A DNA stretch of 63,977 nucleotides, counting the filler, from Reticulomyxa filosa (Eukaryota > Protista > Foraminifera), in assembly GCA_000512085.1 (NCBI GenBank). It is 18 parts of 18 records of this genome, joined end to end, with 100 filler letters (N's around TTAATTAATTAA, not from the genome) between each part and the next. Parts side by side here need not be neighbours in the genome. Positions count along the whole stretch, not along the records: positions 48,376 to 51,185 come from ASPP01004204.1; 17 more parts are not named here. One strand, written 5' to 3'. This document shows, in pieces, positions 1 to 61,772 of the stretch. Made by a program: the position numbers and the translations under genes. Numbering within the stretch: position 1 is the first letter of the stretch; every line of letters begins with the position of its first letter. The notes below the pieces were generated by a model that was given only the letters and a program-made list of their open reading frames with translations, searched no databases and had not been told where the DNA came from.

Positions 1-1224
1 ATTGTTTTGTCATATGATGAAGAACAAATGACATTTTGACAATCGTTATGGTAATGAAATGGTGAAAATTTTACACAATACACAGGAGATGAATGCCCGT
101 TAAATGATTGAATTTGTTTGTTGTTATCGACATCCCATACACGAACTGTGTTATCATCTGATCCAGAACAAATGAATTGCTTATCATCTGATGTTGAACA
201 ATCAATACTCCACACCCAATTGGTATGTCCAGTGAATGTCTTGATTAATTTAAAAGGACGTACCAATTCAAAATTGGAAGTGGGTGATGTGTTAATAACT
301 GATGTTGATAAATTTTCATTTTTATTATTTCCTTTTTGTTCTTCTTTATTGTCATTTATCTGTCTATTTTTTTCTTCAAACTTTTTTTGCTGCTCTACCA
401 TTTTTTTTTCTTTCACTTGCATTTCTTCTTTTATTTTTTGAATTTCGATATCTTTTTTTAATTTTTGCATCTCAGGCAGCGTTGTTTGCTGTTTAATTAT
501 TGTTTCTTGTTTTTGGATATTTTGAATAGATCGAAAGCAAAAAAGAAAAACACAACAAACCTGATCAGAGTTTAATTGTAGGTTGTCTTTTTGATCTAGC
601 TCCAATTGCTGTCTCAAAGGTGCGACTCCTCCATCTTTTTTCCCTTTTAACTGTAACTCTACTTTAAGTTTTTCATTTTCCAAATTTAATTTCCTAATCT
701 CCTCCTATTTGTATTTTTTTTAAGATGAGCATAGATTGTTTTGTAAAAATCCTCAAAAAAAAAAAAAAAGAAATAATAAATAATTACCTGATATAGTCGA
801 ATAGTCTGTTGTAATGTATCAAAAGATTTGACAACCAAATCAAAATGCAATTTCATATTCGAAGTTAAGTGATCATGAATCACAGATTTTGAACATGTGT
901 GATTGCATCCAAATGAGTCAAACCAACACTTAACCATTTGTAGACAGCACGAATTTTCCAAATGGTCATTCACCTGTTTCACTTTTCCTTTAAAATCACA
1001 ACTCACAAGTCCAGGAGTTTCTCCTTCTCCATGTCCTTGCTGGGTTGTCATTTGTAGTTCTTGCTCTTGTTCTTGTTCGAATTGCCGTGGACATATCACA
1101 TCCAATTCACTAATGTATCGCTTCGCCAATCGGCCTTGAGAATACAAACAGTTGTCATGAGGTTCGACTGGACAAGAATTTGGGTTTTGACTAAGAAATT
1201 GTTTCAAGCAATTCTCCCCAACAA
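1..1224 (-). CDS. TRAF7-like architecture protein (variant RING end / TRAF zinc finger - coiled coil - WD40), partial at both ends
   Basis: Exon 1224-788 has CPVEPHDNC..VICP..CDFKGKVKQVNDHLENSC..CWFDSFGC..HL (TRAF-type Zn finger). GT-AG intron 787-705, coiled-coil exon 704-561, another intron, then an exon running to position 1 with WD40 repeats (FTGHTNWVWSID..ICSGSDDNTVRVWD..FNGHSSPVYCVKFS). Paralog of 38996-41295. Confidence 0.85.
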
Positions 1225-1324
1225 NNNNNNNNNNNNNNNNNNNNNNNNNNNNNNNNNNNNNNNNNNNNTTAATTAATTAANNNNNNNNNNNNNNNNNNNN
1301 NNNNNNNNNNNNNNNNNNNNNNNN
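1225..1324. other. Artificial contig-joining linker (first of 17)
   Basis: 44 N + TTAATTAATTAA (stops in all six frames) + 44 N. Identical linkers at 7002-7101, 22166-22265, 23568-23667, 25307-25406, 28271-28370, 29713-29812, 35067-35166, 36642-36741, 37904-38003, 48276-48375, 51186-51285, 54648-54747, 56205-56304, 57697-57796, 60519-60618 and 61773-61872. Confidence 0.99.
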
Positions 1325-33598: not shown

Positions 33599-35010
33599 TT
33601 AAGGTTTATTGGACTGATTATCTTGTTTATCAGTACTCTGCTGCTGTTGTTGTTGTTGTTGTTGTTCTTGAGGATATCCATAAATTCTCTCTCCAATTTT
33701 GCGCAGCGACTTGGCCAAGACATCTCTGGCGGTTTTGTAGTCCTCGGGAGTGGACGCCTCGTTGTTACGCACGTCCCTGAGATGGGCAATGGCTTGGACA
33801 ATTTCGTGTTTGAGTTCGTCGCCAACCTGTGGTTTGAACTCTTGCAGTTGCACTTCGGCCTGCCAAAGTTCGGTATCGGCGGCGTTTTTGACCTCAGCAG
33901 TTTCTTTGCGTTTCAAGTCCTGCGCATGCATTTGTTCGGCGTCTTGCTTCATGCGCGCGATATCGTCATCGGAGAGTCCGCCGCTGGTCTGCACGCGCAT
34001 GGACTGGTCTTTGGCGGACGCAATATCTTTGGCGGAGACGTGCAGAATGCCATTGGCATCCAAGTCGAAGGACACTTCAATTTTGGGATGTCCCCTGGGA
34101 GCAGGGGGGATGCCAATCAAATCAAAGTGTCCCAAGAACTTGTTATCGATAGCCATTTCACGTTCGCCCTGATATACTTTGATACCGACTTGAGTTTGGT
34201 TATCAAACGCAGTGCTGAACAGCTCTGTTCTCTTTGTCGGAATGGCCGTGTTTTTATCGACGAGACGAGTGAACAGACCACCTAAAGTTTCAATCCCAAG
34301 TGACAGCGGAGTAACGTCAATGAGCACAACCCCTTCCAATTTGCCTCCCAACACTCCGCCTTGAATCGCCGCGCCCATGGCCACCACTTCATCCGGATTC
34401 ACCGACTTGGACGGCACACGTCCGAAAAATTTTTCCGCCACCTCTTGCACTTTGGGCATCCTGGTCATGCCTCCAACCAAAATCACCTCCGCAAGATCGG
34501 ACTTGCTAACACCGGCGTCTTTCAAACACTGCTCGCAAGGTGCCAATGTGCGCTGAATATACTTGTCCACCAAACTCTCAAAGCGTGCGCGAGTCAACTC
34601 CATGTCCAAATGCTTTGGACCAGTGGCGTCCGCTGTGATAAAAGGCGCGCTCAAGTCTGTCTTCATTGCACTCGACAACTCGATCTTGGCCTTCTCCGCT
34701 ACCTCCTTCAGTCGCTGCACTACCAACGGGTCGTGCAACAAGTCCACATTGTTCTCCTTCTTAAACTCGTTTCCAATGTATTTCAACAGCTCGTTGTCAA
34801 AGTCCTCCCCGCCCAATGCCGTGTCCCCATTCGTCGCCATCACTTCAAACACCCCTTCGTTCAACGACAAGATACTTATGTCGAACGTGCCTCCGCCCAA
34901 GTCGAACACCGCCACCGTCCCGTCCTTGCGCGGGTCGGCCACTCCTGAGTCCTTCCCTATCCCATAAGCTAAAGCCGCTGCCGTGGGTTCATTCAATACT
35001 CGTTTCAACC
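33599..35010 (-). CDS. HSPA9: Mitochondrial Hsp70 (mortalin/SSC1, DnaK-type), last exon
   Basis: [51 protein letters not shown] (mitochondrial/alphaproteobacterial type), [14 protein letters not shown]. No EEVD or KDEL. Preceded by an intron acceptor and ends in polyQ. Confidence 0.95.
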
Positions 35011-35166
35011 TAAAAAAAAAACCAATTAACGAAAAATAAAAATAAAAATGTATATATGTATATATANNNNNNNNNNNNNNNNNNNNNNNNNNNNNNNNNN
35101 NNNNNNNNNNTTAATTAATTAANNNNNNNNNNNNNNNNNNNNNNNNNNNNNNNNNNNNNNNNNNNN

Positions 35167-38995: not shown

Positions 38996-41295
38996 CTACC
39001 CCAATAATCGAATTGCTCCTCCGTAAGTTCCACAGCATAATGTATAACTATTACTCTCGTTTGTTTTGTTTTTTGCATCAAGCTTATTTACTGCTGAAGA
39101 AAACAGAAAACAATATATTCCTCCATCATCACCACCCCCTTTGATCATATGTAATTCCCTACCCGATCGAATATCCCAAAAACGAATTGTATTGTCCCAT
39201 GATCCAGAACATATTATATTTGCATTACCAATTCCATTGTTAACAATTGGTAAATTGTCAACACAGTTTACATAATTTGTGTGTCCTCTGAACATGTGAA
39301 TTTCTCTTTTAGATCGAATATCCCACAAACGCACTGTTTTGTCTTCTGATCCAGATAATATTATATTTCCACTGCCATCACTTGCAATTTCATTTCTGGA
39401 ATATTTTACACATCTTACTACATTTTCGTGTCCTTCAAAAACAGCTATTTCTTTGGAAGTTTCGACATCCCATAAACGAATAGTGTTATCCCACGATCCA
39501 GAGCAAATGGTATATCCATTACCCCCAATTATACCAATACTGTTGCTAGTGCGATTTTTGACATTATGCAATGGAGAAAATTCGACACAGCGGACAGTGT
39601 TTGTGTGTCCTTTGAAAACATGTGCTAGCTGATCTGTTTCAACGTCCCATAGCCGAATGCAGGCGTCATTAGACCCAGAGCATAAATATCGACCACCAGT
39701 AAATGATGAAAATTGGATACAATAAACACTGTTTGTATGTTCTTTCAACACCCGAAAGGCCTCCGAAGTGTCAAAGTCCCAAAAGCGAATTGTTCTGTCA
39801 GTTGATGCAGAACAAACGACAAGACACCTGTAGTTATGATAATGATACGGGGAAAATTTCACACAATATACATGATCCGAATGTCCATCAAACAATTTCA
39901 ATTGTCCATTGCCTGCAAAATCCCAAACACGAATTGTTTTATCTTTTGATCCAGAACAAAGGAATTCGCCACCATCAAGTGATGAGTAATCAATACTCCA
40001 CACAATGCTGCTATGTCTGGTAAAAGTTTTAAGTGTTTTCGCTGAATAAAACCAATCAAAGTTGACAGTGGATGAAGATCGATTATTGCACTCGTTTTGT
40101 TCTTCGTTTTTGTTTGCATTACACAATTGAGAAGCATTCTTTTTTTCCATCAACTTAGCTTCCATATCAGCCTGGAGTTTGATTATTTCTTGTTTATGCT
40201 TTTTCTGTATCTCTTTCATTTCTATTTCTTTCTGCAAAAGCTGGCTTTCTTTCGATTGGATAATTTGCGAATACGTTTGAGTATTTTCATTCATCTGCTG
40301 ATTTCCATTTTCTTGTGTCTGCTTTTTTTTTGCTTCAGTTTTGCTATCTTTTTTCAAGTTCTTAACTTCAGAAATTCTTTTAAGCTTATTCATATTTGCC
40401 CCCCCCCCCAAAAAAAAGAGAAAGAATAAATTTAGAGTGTGTTGAACATTTTTGTTTTTGTTTATGATTTATTCATTTGTTTGTTTGTTTTTAAATCAAA
40501 ACTAGATTTTCTTTTAGAAAAGTTAAATTTTCTTCGTCTTTCTTCTTTTGTGATTGCATCTCCAGTTTTAACTTTTCGTGTTGCGAATTTAATTGAATTG
40601 CTTCTTTCTGTTTTTCCCATTGTTTGCTAATTTTTAATTTCATTTCAAAAAAAAAAAAAAAAAAAAGCAAACAAGGGCTAAGCTTGAAGTAATTGTATAG
40701 TTTGTTGCAACGATGTAAATGACTTTATGACCAAATCAAAATGGAATTGCATCTTTGAGATCAAATGCTGTTGTAATTCGCTCTTATTACATGTGTGATC
40801 ACAACCAAATGGTTGAAACCAACATTTGGAAAATTGCAGGGAACAGGAGCTATTCAAATGATCGTCCAAGTCTTTTAATTTTCCACTAAAATTACATTTA
40901 ATTCCCTTTCCATTGCTCACTTGTTGTGAGTCTTGTGTAAATTGCAGTGGGCATATCACATCCAATTCGCCGATATACCGTTGTGCTAATCTACTTTTGG
41001 CATACTGGCAATGGTTATGAGAGCGAACTGGACAAGAATTAGGATTTGAATTGAGAAAACGCTTCAAACACTCCTCTCCAACAAGAAATGCCCCTTCCAA
41101 TTCTTGATGTTCGGTACAGCTTATCTCAATGGGATTGTTCGCAATTTGTCCACAAATCAAACAAATCAACTCGCTAATTTGAGTATGGTTGTTCGACTGT
41201 AAAATCCAGTTTTTGCTGAAACACTGTGACCGCTCTGGAAAGAAGGGATCCGTAGTATCCTCTTTTTTGATCTTTTGATTCTCTTTTCTGCTCAT
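38996..41295 (-). CDS. Complete TRAF7-like architecture protein: variant RING - TRAF zinc finger - coiled coil - ~7 WD40
   Basis: Exon 1 (41295-40684): CLIC..C.EH..VGEEC..CPV..H..C and VICP..CNFSGKL..HL..C..CWFQPFGC..HL. GC-AG intron 40683-40608, short coiled-coil exon, intron, then a last exon with GH..V....FS..CSGS.D.TIR.WD repeats ending at stop 38996. Confidence 0.9.
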
Positions 41296-41971
41296 CTTGT
41301 GATTGATTTCTTTTTATCTATCGATTATAAATCTTTAAATTTTTTTTTAAATTGAATGAATGTATCTTTCCTTGGTCTAGACCAACAGTCTCGAACAACA
41401 ACGTACAATGTAAAAACAATAAATAAAAAGAATAGCATATGGAAGTGTTGTCACTTTTTCTGTTTTTTTAATGTTTTTATTTTTTATCATTTGTTGGATT
41501 ATTAATATTATTTTGGCACTAACAGTTAAAAATAAAGTTTCCCAAATTGGATAAAATTGGAGTAAGTCTACTTTATTGAAAAAATTTTATGTGAAGATTG
41601 TGTAAAGCTCTTGCATAAAATCTTCATTCCACAACTTGTCACGCTAGCTGTTAACACATGTTATATTGAATGCACAAAAAATATTTTTATAGAGGATTAC
41701 GAAAGAAGAAAATGATTGAAATGTCAGGCTTGCAAATCGTAAAAGTCAAATAACTATTTCAAACAAAAAATTGTAACGAAAGTCTATTCAAGACAATAAA
41801 ATACCACTAGAGTAATAAAGTCGTACCACAACCAAAACCTATTTGCAATATTCGTTTTTTAAAACATACGGAAAAAAAACATCACTAACAAAAATCCAAT
41901 CATCATGTTCCAACAAAAGATGTATGCATTGTTGGACACACATGAGCAAAAAAGTAATAACAAAACCACCA

Positions 41972-44678
41972 CTAACGACTGTTTGGTGTAAAGACAATGT
42001 CGTACAAAGTTGTATCTTGACTTTCCACACAATACCATTCTCCTTGTTGATTTTTTCGAATTTTGTCTCGAATTTCACGTAACATTTGATTTAGCGAATA
42101 ATTTTTCTTGTGTGCCTCTGTCATTACAGCGTGCATACATTGACTCAACAGCGAAGCGTCGCTGACAAGATGTCCTTTAGTAGTTGACCAAATAGTTAAA
42201 AAACCATCGTCGTCATGTCCATGAAATTGTTCTGATTGAATATTTTCTTGGTTTCCTCTCACCACAACTGCACGTGATTTTGGTCTATTTCGACCTCGAC
42301 AAGCATCAACAATGAATATTTTGGGACAATCTTTTAATGCTGCCATTTCATGGCAATTGAAAGAAGCACGAATTTTGCAATTGATATATCATTGCCTTCA
42401 CTGGTAACTAACACATTTCCAATATCACCATGTCCACAAAGAATTATGATCAATGCATCATATTTGTTGGAATTTTCTCGAAGCTTATAATTGGCAATCA
42501 CTGCATCTAAAAATTCTTCCACATCTGGTTTCAGCATTTTCGGCGATTCATTACAGATGAAATCATATTTCAATTCATCTTTGAACAATTTCTTAAAGTT
42601 TTCGAGATCTCTGTCCTTCACATTTTCAAGATTAGGCCAGTCTGTCTCTTTGTTATATTCACTGATTGCAATCATTATCACCAATGCATTATTAATCATT
42701 TTCTTTTGTCCACAGTTTCTCCAAATTACTTTCAAAGTTGGGATATCCTTCTCAAAGGCCTTGCGGACATCTTCATCAGATTGGATGGCCTGCTGATCCA
42801 TATCAACAATTCCCAATTTCAAATTCTTTGTTGTTATGGTTTCAAAGTCGCTGTTTTCCAAGCAATGATAAATGCGACGAACCAATTCTCCATAGGTTAA
42901 TTCATCCAGATAAATTTTTGTTTCCTTGTCATTGACTATTACATGTGCGGCTGCCTTTTTAAAAAGTTTCATTTTTTTTTTTTTTTTTTTTAAATAAAAA
43001 ATATGTATGTGTATATGTATATATGTTTATATTTATTTATTTATGAAAAGATAAATGACTTGGCTGGACCCTTGGTTGTTCTATTCAAATGACCAAAGTG
43101 TGGTATTGTACGACCTCACTTTGCAAGTCGATACAGCAAAAAAAAGGTAAAAGGGGTGCAAAGTAAAATAACATCATCAAGTGAGCGATAGTAAATATAG
43201 GATTCAATGGTAATGCAAATGTCAGGAATGTTACCATCGTGCAGTTGATTTTGCCATTTGCTGTTCGTCAGCAGCCACATTGCAAACTCCGGCTGTGCCA
43301 GCTGTTCAAAGTTTGCAATAATTTCCGCTTTGTCAGTTTCACTTTTATCTTTCCACCATTTCATCCATTTTTTCTGTTCTTCCCATTTCTTTTTTTTTTT
43401 TTTTTTGTAAGTAGAAGATATCCACAATGACTTTTTTAACAAAAAAAAAAAAAAAAAAAAAAGTAAAAAGCAATGCATCCTCACAACTGTATTTTCATTT
43501 GAGCATGTCTTGAATGTCAAAGCTTCATATCCATTCCCCTCTTTCTCCTTTGTGACATCACTGTCTTTGACGACGTTGTAATCAGCCAGGAGTGTTTGGA
43601 CTTCGTCCTTGTCCAGCACTTGATTCACAGATACTCGCACGTGCGTCAAGACCATGTTGGGTCCATCACGTCCTCCGAGAACATGCACAAAGGTGTTGTC
43701 GGCGGTCAAAACGCCCGCACATTCAGTCAAAGGGAGCGACAGTGAGCATGAAAAATATGTCCACTTGCGTTTGGCGAGGGAAAACTTGTGGACGAATTTG
43801 GTGGCGATAGTAGAGTCAGACGAACCAAGCTCACCTTCCCACGCACGAAAGAACAGAATGACATCATTGACACATACATAAGAATAATGGTGATACGGTG
43901 CAATAGTCTCACAAATAGGCAAATTGCAAAATTGAAATGTGTGTTTGTGTTCCTCAAAATCAATGGCTAATCCTGTCTTTTTACAAAATAACACCATTTC
44001 ATTATTGAAATACTTCTGCTGCTGTTGATGCTGATGCTGATACTGATACTGATACTGATGTGCTGCTGTTGATACAAAACAATGATATCGTATCCAATCC
44101 TCATGAATTGGTAATGTGCTACGACTCACATACTGAAATGTATTCAGGTCAAATACATCGATATTCTTGGGATAATACGTGATAAACAACAAATGGCTTT
44201 GGCTTCCACCGATCACTGCACGCATTCCGGCAAAATCGTCTTCCTCTTTGCCAATGCGAATTTCCTTGTCTTCGCTGTCTGTCAATGGAATCCATTCGTT
44301 CCAACACTTGTTTACTATTGCTGTTGTTGTTGCTGTTGCCATCGTATCACTTCCTCTCTTGTCCCACACACTCACGTAATTCAACGTCAACGTATACTTT
44401 TGCTCATTTTTGTCGCCACCCAAACACAACAACGTCATGTCAGCTGCTTCTTTACTGCTTACACGCTTCACCACACAGTGTCCGTGCAACTTCATATCCC
44501 TTGGGTACGCGCAGATCCGCTTGCACTGCTTTGCTACTGTATTATACGAATAACACTCGTTGTTCTCGTAACTTCCACAAATCAGAATCTCGTCGTTGTG
44601 CACCACACATTGGCTAAGTGAAAGTGCTGATGGTAATGGGGGTAACGGTTCAAACGGAATTGTTGATTGGTTCCCCAT
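41972..44678 (-). CDS. Myristoylated kelch-like propeller - helical module - PB1-like - caspase-family (C14) fusion protein
   Basis: Exons 44678-43488, 43388-43173, 43080-43060 (21-nt microexon) and 42954-41972, all phase-0 GT-AG. MGNQST start. PB1-like DMDQQAIQSDEDVRKAF. Catalytic ILCGHG (~42431) and KIFIVDACRG (~42300). One-base frameshift in a T4 run at 42373-42376. Confidence 0.8.
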
Positions 44679-45959
44679 ATTCTTATTTATTCCTAGTTTG
44701 AGGCCAAAGAAAAAAGTGATGCAAAGATTTTTTTAAAAAGGGGGGGTAGAAAATTCAAACAACAAAAAACGTTCTTTTCTAGGAGCAGTTGAAATACAAA
44801 TCCTTTAAAGAAGTTATTTACGTATGTTTTTAAAAATGAACGTATTTGCTACAAAAAAAAGATCCGATTTGATATCCATTACTCCGATGATCTTTATTTT
44901 TTGCATATATTCAATAAACAATGCAAGTCGACAAATTGCCAACAAAACGTTTGCATTTGTAGCAAGTTAACTGACAAAAAAAAGGCACCATTTTAAAAAG
45001 GTGATCACCAACCAATAACACACAAGTTGTCCATAGTATATCCTTCTTTAGCCTTTTTTTGTTATTGTGTGTGGCTTCCAAAACTTCGATCAAAAAGACA
45101 AGCAAGTGGATGCTCAAAAGACAGGCAAAAAAGTGGAAAAAAAAAAAGAAAGAAAATAATAAAGTAAAATAACAAAATAAAAGACATACTCAAAGGACAC
45201 AAATATATGTTAAAAAGAAAGAGCAAAAATTGAAGTTGACCAACAAGTGCAATTTTTGGTTGTATGAAGTACAAGGATCTCCCCCTAGCTCCCCTCCATA
45301 GGCACAACACGGAAACAAAAGTAACACGTTGTTTGCAAAGATCCTCTGTGACATCATTCACAGCCTCGCCCCAGCTAAACAAAAAGTTTAAGAAGAACAA
45401 ACAAGGTTTCATACTACACAAAATGCATACCTACACACTCTCTCTTTCATTTTTTTCCCTCAACTCTTTTTTTTTCCATTTTCCCCCTCTTTCCCAAAAC
45501 GATGTGTCCCTCAAAGATAAAAAAAGAGCAAACGTATTGCTCCTTATCTCTCAGGGGCACATTCAAATAAAAATTTTTTTTTTTTTTATGACAATTTTTT
45601 TTTAAAAAAAAGAAAAAAAAAATGTCAAATCAAATGCAAATAAAAAAAACAAATAAAAAAAAATAAAAAAAAGTGGTATGATCCTTGTTCGATTTTCTTA
45701 GGTTTTCAAGATGTGCGTTTTTGTTTTTTTTTGTACACCTGATTTTTTTTTCAAGGTTTTTAAAGGTTAGAAACCTCAAAACCAATGCACACATATAATG
45801 AAAACCAATCACATTTTTCCTGACTTAAGACGAAAACAAAAAAAAAAAAAGAAATTGCACTTGTTTTTTGTTTTTTTTTGTCAGAATTGTAAACGATACC
45901 TTATTGGTAGTAGTAATAATAATAATAAAAAAAAAAGAAAAAGCGCCTTAAAGTGGAAA

Positions 45960-48275: not shown

Positions 48276-48499
48276 NNNNNNNNNNNNNNNNNNNNNNNNN
48301 NNNNNNNNNNNNNNNNNNNTTAATTAATTAANNNNNNNNNNNNNNNNNNNNNNNNNNNNNNNNNNNNNNNNNNNNCACCGTTCCCGTTTGCTTTTTCGTT
48401 CATTTTATTGGCAGTTCTGTTTTTTTATTTTAAAAAAAGGAGATATTTTACTTTTTTTAAAAAAAAAAAAAAAATTGAATTGAAAATACAAATAATCAG

Positions 48500-51185
48500 G
48501 AAACAATGAAGAAATGAAATATCCTGATGATGAAGAAATGAAATATCCTAATGATGAAAAACGAGAGATCGAAAATATTGAATTGGACCAAAATAAACCG
48601 TGGAATGAAGCGAACAAGACAGCTCACACAATAGTTGAGCAAATGGTTAAAAAAAAACAGAAGGGAATTGTGGTTGTTTCAACCAATCTTGATCAACTTG
48701 CAAGACCAAATGGTCGATGGTTTTTTCAAAATATTCCTTTTACAATGATGATTAATTCAGATAAATATATGAAAGAAAAAAAAGTAATTCCACCATATGT
48801 CGTTTATTCATTCCATTCAAAAAATATCACATTTGATAATGTTACAATCGATGGATGTGTTTATGTTATTGATTGTGTGATTAATGGGAGTGGTCATTTT
48901 CATATTACCCAACACCTTATTCATACCAGCCAATCTGTTATTCGTTATAACTTTCAACGACATGTTTTCACTGTTTCATTGCCCATTGACTCAAACAAGC
49001 TTATGAAATCGGGAATAGATTTATATGAGATATCAAATTTCGATGAAGCAATTGCATTGATTCGTTTTGCACTTTGTTTCAGATTGCAATCACAAAGTAG
49101 TTCTGATATTGACGTTGCACACTCTTTTTACTGGTTAGGAAAAGCATATAATGAGAAAGGAGAATTTGACAAATCAATTGAATATCACAAAAAAGCATTG
49201 ACAATAAGATTAGATAAATTGGAGCCAGATCACATTGACATTGGTGAGTCATACAATATGTTGGGAATTGCCCACGACAATAAACGAGAATACGACAAAG
49301 CACTTGAATTTTATCAAAAAACGCTAGTCATTTGGTCAAAAAAATTAGACAGTAGTCACAGTGATGTTGCTGATTCTTACAATAATTTGGGAAGAGTCTA
49401 TTATATGAAAGCAGAATATGACAAAGCATATGAATATCACAAAAAAGCATTGGACATTTATTCGCAAAAATCGGACGAAAATCAAATAAAGGTTGCCATT
49501 TGCTACTGTCATTTGGGAAATGTTCATTATAGAAAAGGAGAATATCCCGAATCAATTGAATGCCACGAAAAACACTTGAAAATTTCATTAGAACAATTAG
49601 GTGAAGATCATACAGATGTTGCGGCATCGTTTATTAATTTAGGAAAGTCATATTTTGAAACAGGGGAATATGAAATATCGATAGCATATCATGAACAGGC
49701 ATTACAGAAATTTGATGAAGCGCATGCATTTGTTGCAATATCATTGAATGAATTGGGATTGGTGTGGATAAAAGGAAAAATGCAAATAAATAAAGCTAAA
49801 GAATATGTCGACAAAGCTTTGGAAATTTTGATCGATGATAAGAGCAATGACTTTGATTTAGAGCTTGCAAAATCTTATGATGTGTTGGGATTGATATTGG
49901 AAAAAGATGGAAAATATGAAGAAGCAATCCAATCTTTTGAAAAATCGTTGGAAATTAGATTTAAAAATCTGAATGATAATGATCCTTATATTGCTTGGTC
50001 TTTTCATTATTTGGCAAGTGTATTCAAAAATAAGAATGATTTGGATAAATCAATTGAATATGGAGAAAAAGCTTTGAAATTGAGATTAAATAAATTAGAT
50101 TGGGATCATCCACACGTTGGTGAATCTTATATTCTTTTAGGAGATATTTATCTTGCAAGAGGAACCAAAACTAAAGCAAAGAAATGTTATGAAGATGCAC
50201 TCAAGATTTTTGATAAAAGGTTTAGTGAACAACATCAAAAGACAGTGCATGTGAGATTGATATTGGAAAAGATCAATGAAGTTTGATTATCTATTTTATT
50301 TTATTTTGCTGTTAATTTGTTTAATTTTTGTACTTTTCAAAAAAAAATAAATAAAAATAACAGCAACAAGCATATATCATTGTGGATGAAACGAAGGAAT
50401 TGATAAAACTGAAAGGCTTAGTATATGAAGAGTTAATTCAACAGATTTATTCTTGCTTAAATTTGCAATCTTTTAAAAAAATGCAACAAGAGAATTTGAC
50501 ATTTGATTTAGTTGATATGAGGGACAATATTATCGACTCAGATGAAGCAGTTCAACAATCATTTATGGTGGAAAAACCTTCATTTAAAATACGTTGGAGA
50601 CCAATAATAAGTGGAAAATGCAAGATAATAAAGAACGCATTAGTTGTGATGATTGCAATTAGTGAATATACTGATAAGAAAAAATATGGCGATCTTTCAA
50701 ATGTGAAAGACGAGGATGTCAATAATTTCAAACAATTATTTGAACAAGAATTGAATTATACATTTGTGGTCAATGAATCTCCACAAATGACAAAAAAAGA
50801 GGTGCGATCATTTTTGACCAAATTCATTGCAAAGTATAAACTTCATGCTAATACTCGCAAATATGATGGACTGATAATGATTATTTGTGGACACGGAGAG
50901 AAGGGAAATATGTTAGTGACGAGTGATGGAAAATCTCTATCAATTGACGAAATACGTGAATTATTTGGTTGTGATGTACTGGAATCTTTCAAAGATCTTC
51001 CAAAGATATTTATCATTGATGTGTGTCGTGGTGAAACCAGTCCAACGGCTCACTCAACAACAAGTACGAGAGGAAAGATACAAAAAAAGGAAACCGTACA
51101 GTCGTTGGGACATAGCGGTGACGGATTTTTGACCATTTGGTCAACTATATCAGGATATCAAGTTGCAGATTTTTCATTGTTGAGT
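48500..51185 (+). CDS. TPR-array - PB1-like - caspase-family (C14) fusion protein, truncated at both contig ends
   Basis: About ten 42-aa TPRs (DVADSYNNLGRVYY.K.EYDKA.EYHKKAL.I) up to 50280. Phase-0 intron 50281-50363 (GTTTGA..AACAG), then in-frame QQAYIIVDETK..DMRDNIIDSDEAVQQSF..ALVVMIAISEY..IICGHG (His 50892)..KIFIIDVCRG (Cys 51024). Confidence 0.8.
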
Positions 51186-52701: not shown

Positions 52702-53385
52702 ATTTCTTTTTTTCCAAATCTTAAAACAAACACTAAATGAACTACAAAAGTTGCTTTTTTTTTAAGAACTCAAAGGGGTACTGTTAAAACTCAATCTGCT
52801 GTGTCCAAACAACTTTGTTTTTGCGATACAATAATTGAGAAAAGCTTTGTTTCTCAATCATTTGAAATATATTTGAGCATATGGGTCAGAATAAATTACA
52901 AGCATGAATATGTACAATTGATCGCAAAAAAAAGACACTGACCAATCCAAACTCTTACAAATATGTGTAATTTTATTTATAAAAAAGTAGCCTTTTCTGA
53001 ATTTGTATTTTAAATGAGATCAATAAGTCACGGAAACTCCAAGAGTTACAAAGTTCAAAAGTTTCCACGTTTTGGAAATTTCTTTGTGATTATTTTTTTA
53101 CTTTCGCGGAAACGCTTTAAAAAAAGAGAGCAAAAATTGTTTATACTTATTTTTCAACTTGGTGAAACAACTACTTCTTTTTCAACAACACTTATAAAAG
53201 TTTTTCTTGCACTATAAAACTAAATGTCATCGAATATAAATTGCCATGAACAAGTAAAAGTCCAGAAATTTTTTTCTTGAAATAGGAAATAATATTTATC
53301 CCACGAGAAATTTAAAAGAAAGGGGACCGGAAGAGCAGACAGGGGGGTCAATAATTAATTTTTCATACATATTGGTTAAAAAAAC

Positions 53386-54647
53386 ATGTCTAATAGAAGA
53401 GCAGACGATTCTTTAGCTTCAGGTGGAGGAAAGCAGGCAGCACTTTCAGAAGTGCTAGGTGGTGAAGTACGAGAGAAGCGTTTACCGCGACGAGCTCGTG
53501 ATGTTCAAAACAAGGCCGCTGCGCCACAGCAAATAACAGCCGAGCAAATATTACGCGAGGCACAAGAGATGCAATTTGAGAAGGAAGTGGCACCTCCTCG
53601 ACAGCAAATAACAGACACCGAAGAATTGAAATTATATAAACTGCGCAAAAGAAAAGAATTTGAGAATATTTTAAGAAGACAACGAATGAGTGTGGGAGTA
53701 TGGTTGAAATATGCACAATGGGAAGAAAGACAAAAAGAATTTGAGCGTTGTCGAAGCATTATGGAAAGATTGTTATGTATTGATCATCGTAATCATACGA
53801 TTTGGATAAAATATGCTGAAATGGAAATGCGAAATAAATTTATTAATCGCGCAAGAAATGTATGGGATAGAGCAGTACAATTATTGCCAAGAGTGGATCA
53901 ATTGTGGTATAAATACGCTTTAATGGAAGAGCAATTGCGAAATTTCGAAGGTTATTATTTTTGTGTAAGTATTATTATTATTATTATTATTTATTTGTTT
54001 TTATTATTTATTTGTTTTTATTATTTATTTTTTATAAAAAAATAATCTTTAAAAAGGGGCTAGAGGTATCTTTGAACGTTGGATGAAATTCAATCCTGGA
54101 GAAAAAGCATGGACATCTTATATACATTTGGAAATGCGAAGTGCAGGGAGTAAAGCGGATAAAATAATTCGTTGTCGAAAAATTTATGAAAGATTTGTAA
54201 AAGCTCAACCAAAATTAGATAGCTATATAAATTATGCACAATGGGAATTAAAACATGGAAATATAAATGAAAGTAGACATGTATATGAACGAGCAATGAA
54301 TGAAATAGATAATGAAGAATTGACATACGAATTTTATAAAGAATTTGCACAATTAGAAATTAGTGCAAAGGAATATGAACGTGCAAGAGTGATTTATAAA
54401 TATGGTATTGATAATATTCCTAAATATAAAGCATATGAATTATTTCAAGAATATATTAAATTTGAAAAACAATTTGGAGAAAAGAGTTCAATTGATCAAG
54501 TTATCTTTAATAAAAAAAGATTTGAATATGAAAATTTGTTACAAGAAAATCCACATAATTATGATATTTGGTTTGATTATTTAAAAATGGAAGAAGAACA
54601 TATTATTACAAATACAAATGCAAATATGAATACTACTACTACTACTA
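53386..54647 (+). CDS. CRNKL1: Crooked neck / Clf1 / Syf3 pre-mRNA splicing factor (HAT repeats), 3' truncated
   Basis: VQNKAAAPQQITAEQILREA, PPRQQITDTEEL..YKLRKRKEFE, WLKYAQWEE, RARNVWDRAVQLLPRVDQLWYKY, NPHNYDIWFDYLKMEE. One intron ~53951-54057. Confidence 0.97.
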
Positions 54648-60280: not shown

Positions 60281-61106
60281 TGCTGCTGTTAACACATTAC
60301 ACAATATATAGATGTATATATGTGTGTATAATATAGTATGTTTTATCTTTTAATAACTTATTTTATAAGTATATCTTTGAATTGACTTTTGTTTATTTTG
60401 TTTTTCTTTAAGTATTCGTCGATGTCGTTTTCGTGTCTTTTGTGTTTCTGTGTATGTTCATGCAGTGTCCATGGGCGTATTTATGTCATCGTATTTGTTA
60501 CCAAATTGATGACTTTACNNNNNNNNNNNNNNNNNNNNNNNNNNNNNNNNNNNNNNNNNNNNTTAATTAATTAANNNNNNNNNNNNNNNNNNNNNNNNNN
60601 NNNNNNNNNNNNNNNNNNTCATTTTATGAGAGAAACTGAACACTGAGCACTTTCAAACTTATCTGTGCCAATGGTTGCGCTTGATACGTTTTTGTGATGG
60701 TTCAAACTCAAGTCACTATTTCTTCTCACTGGTGTAGTTTAATTTTTTTTTTTCCTCCTTATTTCTATTCTTTCCAATAAGGAGAGGATTGGACCATGCT
60801 CGCTTCAAAACAAACAATCAACAAAAGGTCTACATTTTAGTGAAAAAACTCCAGTGTTTACTGCTGAGTTGAAAATGGCTATCTTGAGAAATTGAAACAA
60901 TTTTGTGCGATGTTTATTCAATTTTGTCTATTTAGTCTTACTTAAAAATCCTTCAATGTAAAGAAAATGCTAAGTTTTGCGCACTGGCCATCATTGACGA
61001 AGGATAAAACAGTTGTAGGTAATCCATCGTTTTTTTTGGTTTTTAAGTTCGGTCATATAACAAAAACTCTATATTTCAGAAACTTTTTTTTTTTGCTCTT
61101 ATCAGA

Positions 61107-61772
61107 ATGAATATCAATGGCGTCAAAGCAGAAGAAATGGCAATAAATAATGTTGACTCTCTTTTTGAAACATTGGTTCCTTTGCCAACTCCACTTCGTC
61201 TTACCCAGTGTGTTGTACACGGACATGAAATTCTCATTTGTGGAGGTGGGGAAATAAAAACATGTTTTTCATACCATACACTCAAAAACCAGTACAAATT
61301 GATTTGTTCCTATCCAGAAGGGATTGAAATGGGCCATTGTGTGGTGAAAAGACTGTCTCCAAGCACAAATGAGTTAACATTATTGTCATTGAGTGGACAA
61401 GACCGAGAGAAGCAAAAGTATGGATTTGTAATGAAATATAAAAGCGTTTGGGACAATGAAGGTGAAAATCAAAAAGAGAAGCAGTACAATGAATGGATGC
61501 CATTTACTGATAATAGCAACAAATTAATAACAATTGGCAAAGATGATGATTGTCATTTTGGGTTACGTGGAGTGATTGGTGGCAGTGATAATCATTTGTT
61601 GTTTATGACTTATTTTCCCAAGAATATTGACGTGTTTAATTTGAATACATTCCAATATGCAAAGCAAGAGATGTTGCCAATGCGTAACGGGAACAGGGTA
61701 CATTATCATTGTTTTGTATCAAAGGCCAAGCATGAAATGCTGTTGTTTACTTTTAATACTGGGTTATCAATA
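61107..61772 (+). CDS. Kelch-like beta-propeller family protein, paralog of 43488-44678 (3' truncated)
   Basis: FETLVPLPTPLRLTQCVVHGHEILICGG..CFSYH..GHCVVKR..YKSVWD..GVIGGSDNHLLFMTYFPKNIDVFNLNTFQY..YHCFVS aligns with the propeller of the caspase fusion gene. Confidence 0.8.

Follow-up and report, generated by a model that had tools for sequence, protein, structure and literature searches.

A TPR array of Reticulomyxa filosa probably spliced to a PB1-like domain and a caspase-fold protease of predicted Arg/Lys specificity

Introduction

Does a TPR reading frame of the foraminiferan Reticulomyxa filosa that appears to end at a TGA codon continue through a short intron into the caspase-fold protease encoded downstream, and what kind of protease would such a gene produce? 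Reticulomyxa proteins are a main published argument for caspases predating animals. The available text of the papers concerned either classes R. filosa proteins with the caspases by phylogeny (PMC5982838, PMC10565124) or uses Reticulomyxa proteins as the outgroup in caspase trees (10.1101/2023.12.11.571055, PMC11251625).

We analysed a window of 63,977 nt, by which we mean the whole stretch of DNA studied here. It strings together short contigs, with a 100-nt linker between each and the next, and the TPR-protease gene occupies one contig (48376-51185, 2,810 bp), which is bounded upstream by the linker 48276-48375. The gene is cut at both contig ends. The top protein match of the contig was R. 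filosa RFI_04677 (846 aa), which is identical over the TPR part. The join of the TPR and protease parts is already public, as the GenBank model RFI_04677/ETO32440.1 uses the 83-nt intron, and hence it is not new. What is new, as read from the sequences, is the Asp at the Gln position of QACRG, the absence of the specificity arginines and the Arg/Lys-Gly linkers. In the literature searched, no account of this architecture or specificity was found.

The features of the gene, all on the plus strand, are the following (P0002 is the closest paralog):

48377..48413: last 12 codons of an upstream exon, final strand of an N-terminal beta-grasp (PB1-like) domain, matching P0002 residues 167-180
48414..48499: predicted intron, 86 nt, GT-AG, phase 1, 14% GC, T-rich at first and A-rich later on; with it removed, the paralog reading is restored
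48506..48558: tandem duplication of 24 bp, located in an acidic linker (TRF: 2.2 copies, 96%)
48574..48990 (limits approximate): uncharacterised alpha/beta domain of ~135 aa before the TPRs
49099..50226: nine TPR units of ~42 aa (TPR_10/TPR_12 type, by Pfam), preceded by a helical hairpin and closed by a capping helix
50281..50363: predicted intron, 83 nt, GT-AG, phase 0, with an in-frame TGA at 50284-50286, based on the public model, the paralog and composition
50364..50603: beta-grasp (PB1-like) domain
50628..51185: caspase-fold C14 protease (by Pfam, fold and motif), cut at the contig end and ~57 aa short relative to P0002
50892-50894, 51024-51026, 51069-51071 and 51168-51170: protease sites by motif counts, namely His, Cys of Asp-x-Cys, linker Arg and L5 Asp

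The probable intron between the TPR and protease exons

The locus holds two open frames of 596 and 274 codons, and the TPR frame terminates at the second codon of the segment 50281-50363. The original prediction read the apparent stop as the start of a T-rich and then A-rich 83-nt segment ending in AACAG, and the sequence measurements bear this out. The segment begins with GTTTGA and finishes with AACAG, its 5' half is 66% T and its 3' half 55% A, and its GC content is 14% compared to 32-33% in the flanking exons. Excising it joins KINE to QQAY in frame and in phase 0. A frame check also confirmed that the downstream (protease) frame has no ATG ahead of its PB1-like first beta-strand. Many other GT-AG pairs, including pairs with other 3' acceptors, preserve the frame as well and therefore the frame by itself is weak proof of this particular intron.

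Related genes were compared at the same position. P0002, which shows 83-89% identity to the locus in each of four domains, is annotated through the same intron and reads EVWLSILFYF compared to EV*LSILFYF at the locus, with Trp for the stop; the intron sequence is thus common to both and the stop is not. In the second caspase gene of the window the predicted intron 42955-43059 closes with an AG acceptor ahead of the beta-grasp domain (AAAHVIV compared to QQAYIIV), at the codon and in the phase (0) of the acceptor at 50363. Four partial models (P0029, P0035, P0036 and P0039) start exactly at the post-intron codon. As a control we took the intron 53951-54056 from the conserved window gene 53380-54647 (+), which we take to resemble the crooked-neck splicing factor, and its make-up is similar to that of 50281-50363. 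Another gene of the window, 33599-35066 (-), presumably resembles mitochondrial HSP70, and both are housekeeping genes.

Judging from these comparisons, the TPR and protease exons are very probably spliced into one mRNA, and the intron and the fusion are in all likelihood genuine. The central claim that this is one gene, with the TPR array spliced to a PB1-like domain and a caspase-fold protease, is thus upheld by the frames, the public model and the paralogs. The locus is likely a single spliced gene that encodes a beta-grasp domain, the uncharacterised domain, nine TPR units, another beta-grasp domain and the protease. An in-frame stop was present in 9,292 of 10,000 shuffled introns (93%), and the stop in 50281-50363 is an ordinary chance expectation. 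With this rate and the Trp in P0002, nothing supports the proposed protease-less TPR decoy isoform, selected for and made by intron retention.

The N-terminal part and the TPR array

It had been predicted that 5' exons are lost at the contig edge. The gene does start inside an exon, but the prediction had missed the intron 48414-48499 and the 12 codons upstream of it, which match P0002 at 10 of 14 residues (tblastn, E 0.017, in a search against this contig only). An N-terminal module of ~80 aa occurs in six relatives, including the complete paralog P0003, and is homologous to the module that precedes the protease (hhalign probability 70, E 3.9e-5; cross-HMM matches to 7e-6). On the model of these relatives the lost 5' exon is predicted to encode a second beta-grasp (PB1-like) domain. 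An upstream NACHT, NB-ARC or ROC NTPase, which the original prediction expected, does not fit the relatives: P0003 and five others open with the ~80-aa beta-grasp domain instead, and none of the three NTPase types was found in P0003 or, by Pfam, in any of the 11 relatives that share this gene's N-terminal domain. This comparison rests on relatives, and the gene's own 5' end lies off the contig.

The 24-bp duplication ascribed to the uncharacterised N-terminal domain is real according to TRF, but it lies in an acidic linker and P0002 has one copy only; it is a recent linker event. For the ~135-aa domain itself, all 11 matches were R. filosa TPR proteins. The model of this domain reached a pLDDT of 59. 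We found no Foldseek match at E<=0.001 and no usable Atlas match, the VIA fold rows for this region cover the helical hairpin 133-179 only, and a metagenome pattern scan returned 239 pattern matches with 0 relatives.

The whole TPR array is encoded in a single exon and matches Pfam TPR_12 with an E-value of 1.8e-67. The spacing of the units is 42, 42, 42, 42, 38, 44, 42 and 42, and their internal identity is low (mean 0.30). At the positions that we take to line the TPR groove the variability was modestly higher (0.44 compared to 0.33, p 0.03).

The beta-grasp domain preceding the protease

The model of the second exon has an overall pLDDT of 76.8, with ~90 over residues 1-80, which adopt a beta-grasp topology. 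For these residues the best fold rows were PB1 structures, namely Par6 (1wmh_B, Z 8.2, rmsd 2.5, 71 aligned), MEKK3 (8.0) and Bem1 (7.8), although these are tied within ~1 Z with ISG15 (7.6) and ubiquitin-like folds and lie near the Par3-NTD, the PKD dimerisation domain and CIDE-N. The Atlas neighbours of the domain are beta-grasp families. The families listed for the 25 members scanned do not include Pfam PB1, and DIX appeared in one at E 0.046. At what we take to be the position of the canonical PB1 lysine this locus has Gln. PB1 domains pair front to back, a basic lysine on one meeting an acidic OPCA surface on the other; in this family the acidic S-D-E cluster is conserved and the beta1 position is mostly not Lys. 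Based on the model, 'PB1-like' is a fair label for this domain.

The protease and its predicted specificity

The protease matches Pfam Peptidase_C14 (E 2.3e-18), and the nearest solved structures, both by sequence and by fold, are animal caspases, with a fold Z of 14.8 to caspase-2 compared to 9.9 for MALT1 and 10.1 for Yca1. The likeness to CHAT proteases drawn in the original prediction finds no support, as 25 of 25 aligned members match Peptidase_C14 and the best folds are those of animal caspases. For these 25 members, 25 of the 26 families at E<=1 were listed and CHAT is not one of them; the Pfam matches of the window protein do not include it either. The best 50 VIA fold rows contain neither a CHAT nor a separase chain, an absence which does not exclude either.

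The His-Cys dyad is intact at the locus and in 40 of 44 family members. The motif at the catalytic Cys reads DVCRG; this protein and most of the family carry DxCR and not the DxCH of metacaspases. The Gln position of QACRG is occupied by Asp in 47 of the 48 rows that bear the motif (59 rows were examined, 11 of them without the motif, and this locus was counted twice). According to the available text of PMC4357240, the Asp specificity of caspases depends on Arg, Gln and Arg in L1, L4 and L5, and MALT1 has acidic residues at those sites. None of the three basic S1 residues of caspases is retained here. L1 of this protein contains no Arg, and 8 of 46 members have an Arg somewhere in this stretch; a Leu/Ile-led L1 and an Asp in alpha1 were observed in 43 of 46. 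Counted ungapped from the anchor, the L5 position is Asp in 38 of 41 members and Arg in 0 of 41. HMMER gaps out the caspase YSWR rather than pairing its Arg with this Asp, so the Arg is missing at L5 under either alignment and the role of the Asp is uncertain because of the gap placement. Among the acidic S1 sites the alpha1 and L4 Asp are present, whereas the L5 Asp hangs on the alignment and falls in a part of the model where the pLDDT is ~50 because the contig is cut there. The beta6 strand is located past the contig end.

The inter-subunit linkers, otherwise variable, point in the same direction. An Arg-Gly (37) or Lys-Gly (7) pair was present in 44 of the 45 complete linkers (57 sequences) compared to 12.4 from shuffles, whereas D[SGA], the Asp cleavage site looked for in the L4 linker, occurred in 1 of 45. 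As the paralogs share ancestry, these 44 linkers are not independent events. The distance from the Cys to the pair is 14-15 residues in 37 of 44 cases. The pair aligns with the D-S-G processing site of caspase-3 and recurs in Bolivina proteins. The pocket charge and the linker residue together thus indicate a basic P1 and self-processing. We consider it likely that the protease cuts after Arg or Lys, and reasonably likely that it would cleave itself at the predicted linker Arg-Gly site. The R. filosa 'caspases' are accordingly predicted to be Arg/Lys-specific, self-cleaving, paracaspase-like enzymes.

Relatives in Reticulomyxa and other foraminifera

Searches with the beta-grasp and protease module returned 19 long and 31 near-length matches, and all 50 are R. 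filosa proteins. The long matches comprise 5 TPR, 10 Kelch-type, 1 Ras and 3 C14-only proteins, so the same module stands behind TPR, Kelch, Ras and other heads. Heads of the zf-TRAF type occur as well. Most members have the C-terminal beta-grasp domain and neither a TPR nor an N-terminal copy. CARD or DED gave no match in the proteins scanned. A second family member lies on another contig of the window:

41972..44712, minus strand: Kelch-like head, Trp-rich helical exon, 21-nt mini-exon, and beta-grasp plus caspase exon

It has a one-base frameshift near 42375, which is either a pseudogene mark or a sequencing error, and the NCBI model P0062 covers its 3' part only, starting at an ATG inside the predicted intron 42955-43059. 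Its Trp-rich helical module (43172-43390, minus strand, ~62 aa, of no known family) is found before the beta-grasp domain in most members, sometimes twice. Between the TPR end and the beta-grasp domain a Trp-rich helical segment is present in P0003, P0007, P0021 and P0049 and missing from P0001 and P0002, a patchy distribution as expected if phase-0 exons were gained and lost. The head domains were likely swapped through exon shuffling at phase-0 introns. Window frames at 38996-41313 (minus), 686-1276 (minus) and 61047-61770 (plus), labelled by eye as TRAF-zinc-finger-like, WD40 and another Kelch-like frame, are of the kinds that head the family.

In the careful tree (28 hand-picked rows, excluding P0001 because it is the window's own locus; a 121-row tree was a quick version) the Kelch members of R. 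filosa unite with the TPR and Ras members at 98/96, and Ras falls within a group of Kelch proteins at 98/95. Monophyly of the five C-terminal TPR-caspases was neither shown nor rejected (p-AU 0.26). P0024 (RFI_27043) has the reversed order, with a beta-grasp domain and a caspase of a different clade followed by the same ~135-aa domain and TPRs. Grouping its caspase with the others was rejected (p-AU 0.036, with long-branch caution), and therefore the TPR-caspase fusion likely arose twice, independently in P0024. One 50-aa block of P0023 matches P0002 with 100% identity, and over the five preceding blocks, where P0023 is mostly P0021-like, the identity is 54-64%; this mosaic array would reflect either exchange between paralogs or mis-assembly. 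HSP70 and actin fragments are annotated as joined to family modules in P0107 (an R. filosa HSP70 model) and P0197, and these joins may be gene-model or assembly chimeras.

A profile search at E<=0.001 found 2,165 proteins, of which the best 150 were listed. Of 20 listed matches that we looked up, nine come from the EukProt sets of two foraminifera, Bolivina and Nonionella; Kelch-, SAM- and MATH-SAM-caspases that carry DxCR are among them. The EukProt sets of these foraminifera are presumably transcript-derived. Among the 52 longer proteins scanned of the best 150 of 2,165, none outside R. filosa has a TPR head. In P0184, P0195, P0198 and P0128 a related caspase-like domain is attached to a kinase, to MATH and SAM repeats, or to a gamma-glutamyl cyclotransferase domain. 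A caspase scan of metagenome contigs gave 194 matches and 1 locus, L001, whose distant C14 domain has no TPR and is predicted to be anchored in the membrane. This domain (L001:2207-3565) has the DxC motif, follows a predicted transmembrane stretch and a stalk rich in Pro/Ser/Thr, and lies downstream of a lectin-like frame, so that a receptor-type caspase-like protein is possible.

Proposed mechanism and alternative explanations

As a whole we favour, with moderate confidence, one spliced gene whose Arg/Lys protease would cut its own linker upon ligand-induced clustering through the TPR array. A ligand bound by the array would cluster the protein, the beta-grasp domains would aid clustering and the protease domains would dimerise. 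The dimerised proteases would then cut their own inter-subunit linker after Arg, and the processed enzyme would cut targets after Arg or Lys. Dimer activation is proposed because initiator caspases and MALT1 work in this way according to the available part of PMC4357240, and PKD offers a precedent for a ubiquitin-like domain that dimerises an enzyme (PMC6768651, available text). By this analogy, activation through beta-grasp-aided clustering and dimerisation is a nearly evenly balanced possibility. The expansion, the head swapping and the broken copies suggest conflict, with TPR groove variability only modest. A sensor-triggered defence role is plausible as an inference, and a role in sensing non-self or damage in this multinucleate amoeba is put forward tentatively.

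The main rival accepts the same gene and the same specificity, and differs in how the enzyme is controlled: both beta-grasp domains and the TPR solenoid would hold the protease shut in cis until a partner releases it, as in separase and TPR-CHAT, and the gene would serve not defence but ordinary signalling or control of the cytoskeleton. The beta-grasp domains on either side of the TPRs are homologous and could pair with each other, the Ras and zf-TRAF heads and the weak TPR diversification would suit such a role, and TPR-CHAT is described in the available text of PMC9729208 as conformationally autoinhibited. However, most members with the C-terminal beta-grasp domain have no TPR or N-terminal copy to pair with, and ~50 paralogs, broken dyads in 4 of 44 members, a frameshifted copy and a mosaic TPR array resemble birth-and-death evolution. 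We regard release from cis-inhibition as rather unlikely compared to activation by clustering.

The other explanations question the enzyme or the gene itself. The papers that group Reticulomyxa with animal caspases imply a true Asp-specific caspase in an apoptosis-like pathway; the best sequence and fold matches are indeed animal caspases, and the branch of animal and Reticulomyxa proteins has a bootstrap of 92-95% in the available part of PMC5982838. The absence of all three basic S1 residues, the linker counts and the lack of CARD/DED matches in the proteins scanned make this improbable. It is slightly more improbable still that the TGA is a functional stop, with a TPR-only product from a separate gene or a regulated decoy isoform alongside the protease. 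P0022, a model of 797 aa that bears no partial mark, carries a TPR-only annotation and its end resembles intron sequence, and NCBI starts P0062 inside a predicted intron; these models stand against the Trp in P0002, the stops in shuffled introns, the missing ATG ahead of the beta-grasp domain and five models that join TPR and protease. Finally, a short contig cut at both ends, with a frameshifted sister gene in the window, could hold a non-functional recent duplicate or an assembly chimera, but we consider this very improbable given the long open frames, the intact dyad and the identity to P0002 in all four domains.

Comparison with known systems

The original prediction saw convergence on the prokaryotic TPR and CHAT architecture. 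Any likeness would be convergent, as it held, but the protease is C14 and not CHAT. TPR-CHAT proteins (Craspase, DdvA) and separase likewise place a TPR solenoid before a caspase-fold protease, here through a predicted splice, whereas this gene has a C14 protease and beta-grasp spacers and belongs to an intron-bearing eukaryotic multigene family. Fungal and brown-algal NB-ARC+TPR receptors (PMC13449251, available text) share the 42-aa TPR units, the domain shuffling and signs of paralog exchange; this gene differs in having no NTPase, as far as the relatives tell, a low repeat identity and a single-exon array. The cyanobacterial orthocaspases with TPR, WD40 or NACHT domains, as far as described in the available text of PMC5756287, have in common the C14 domain, the basic specificity (predicted here) and the repeat domains, but they are p20-only and prokaryotic, whereas the R. 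filosa protein has a p10 and a C-terminal protease.

The paracaspases (MALT1 and type II) resemble this protein in the caspase-like fold, the predicted acidic S1 pocket and DxCR, which is a proposed paracaspase motif (PMC5756287, available text). In contrast to them, the complete paralog P0003 has no death or Ig domains, and sequence and fold are nearer to caspases. MALT1 requires no linker cleavage in the account available of PMC4357240, whereas the conserved basic linker site here suggests processing. With animal initiator caspases (C14A) the protein shares the fold, the His-Cys dyad, the p20-linker-p10 layout and an interaction module before the protease; unlike them it has DxCR for QACxG, no S1 arginines, an Arg/Lys-Gly linker and a beta-grasp domain replacing CARD/DED.

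This gene is a member of the published Reticulomyxa 'caspases', and the available text of those accounts gives no domain architecture, beta-grasp module or S1 analysis. The outgroup accession ETO10778.1 was not among the accessions of the 10 family proteins that we looked up. A wider proposal, which we consider unlikely, is that Foraminifera possess NTPase-free immune receptors, with dozens of swappable heads (TPR, Kelch, Ras, TRAF, SAM/MATH) exon-shuffled onto a PB1-like, Arg/Lys-specific self-cleaving protease that would be the closest non-animal caspase relative; linker self-processing would have arisen with basic specificity, and the Asp switch in animals only. The predicted Arg/Lys-specific modular family is worth following, as it may be a sensing system and we found none described for this group of protists. 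If its proteases cut after Arg or Lys, the switch to Asp would be animal-specific, and among living enzymes these would be the nearest model of what preceded the switch.
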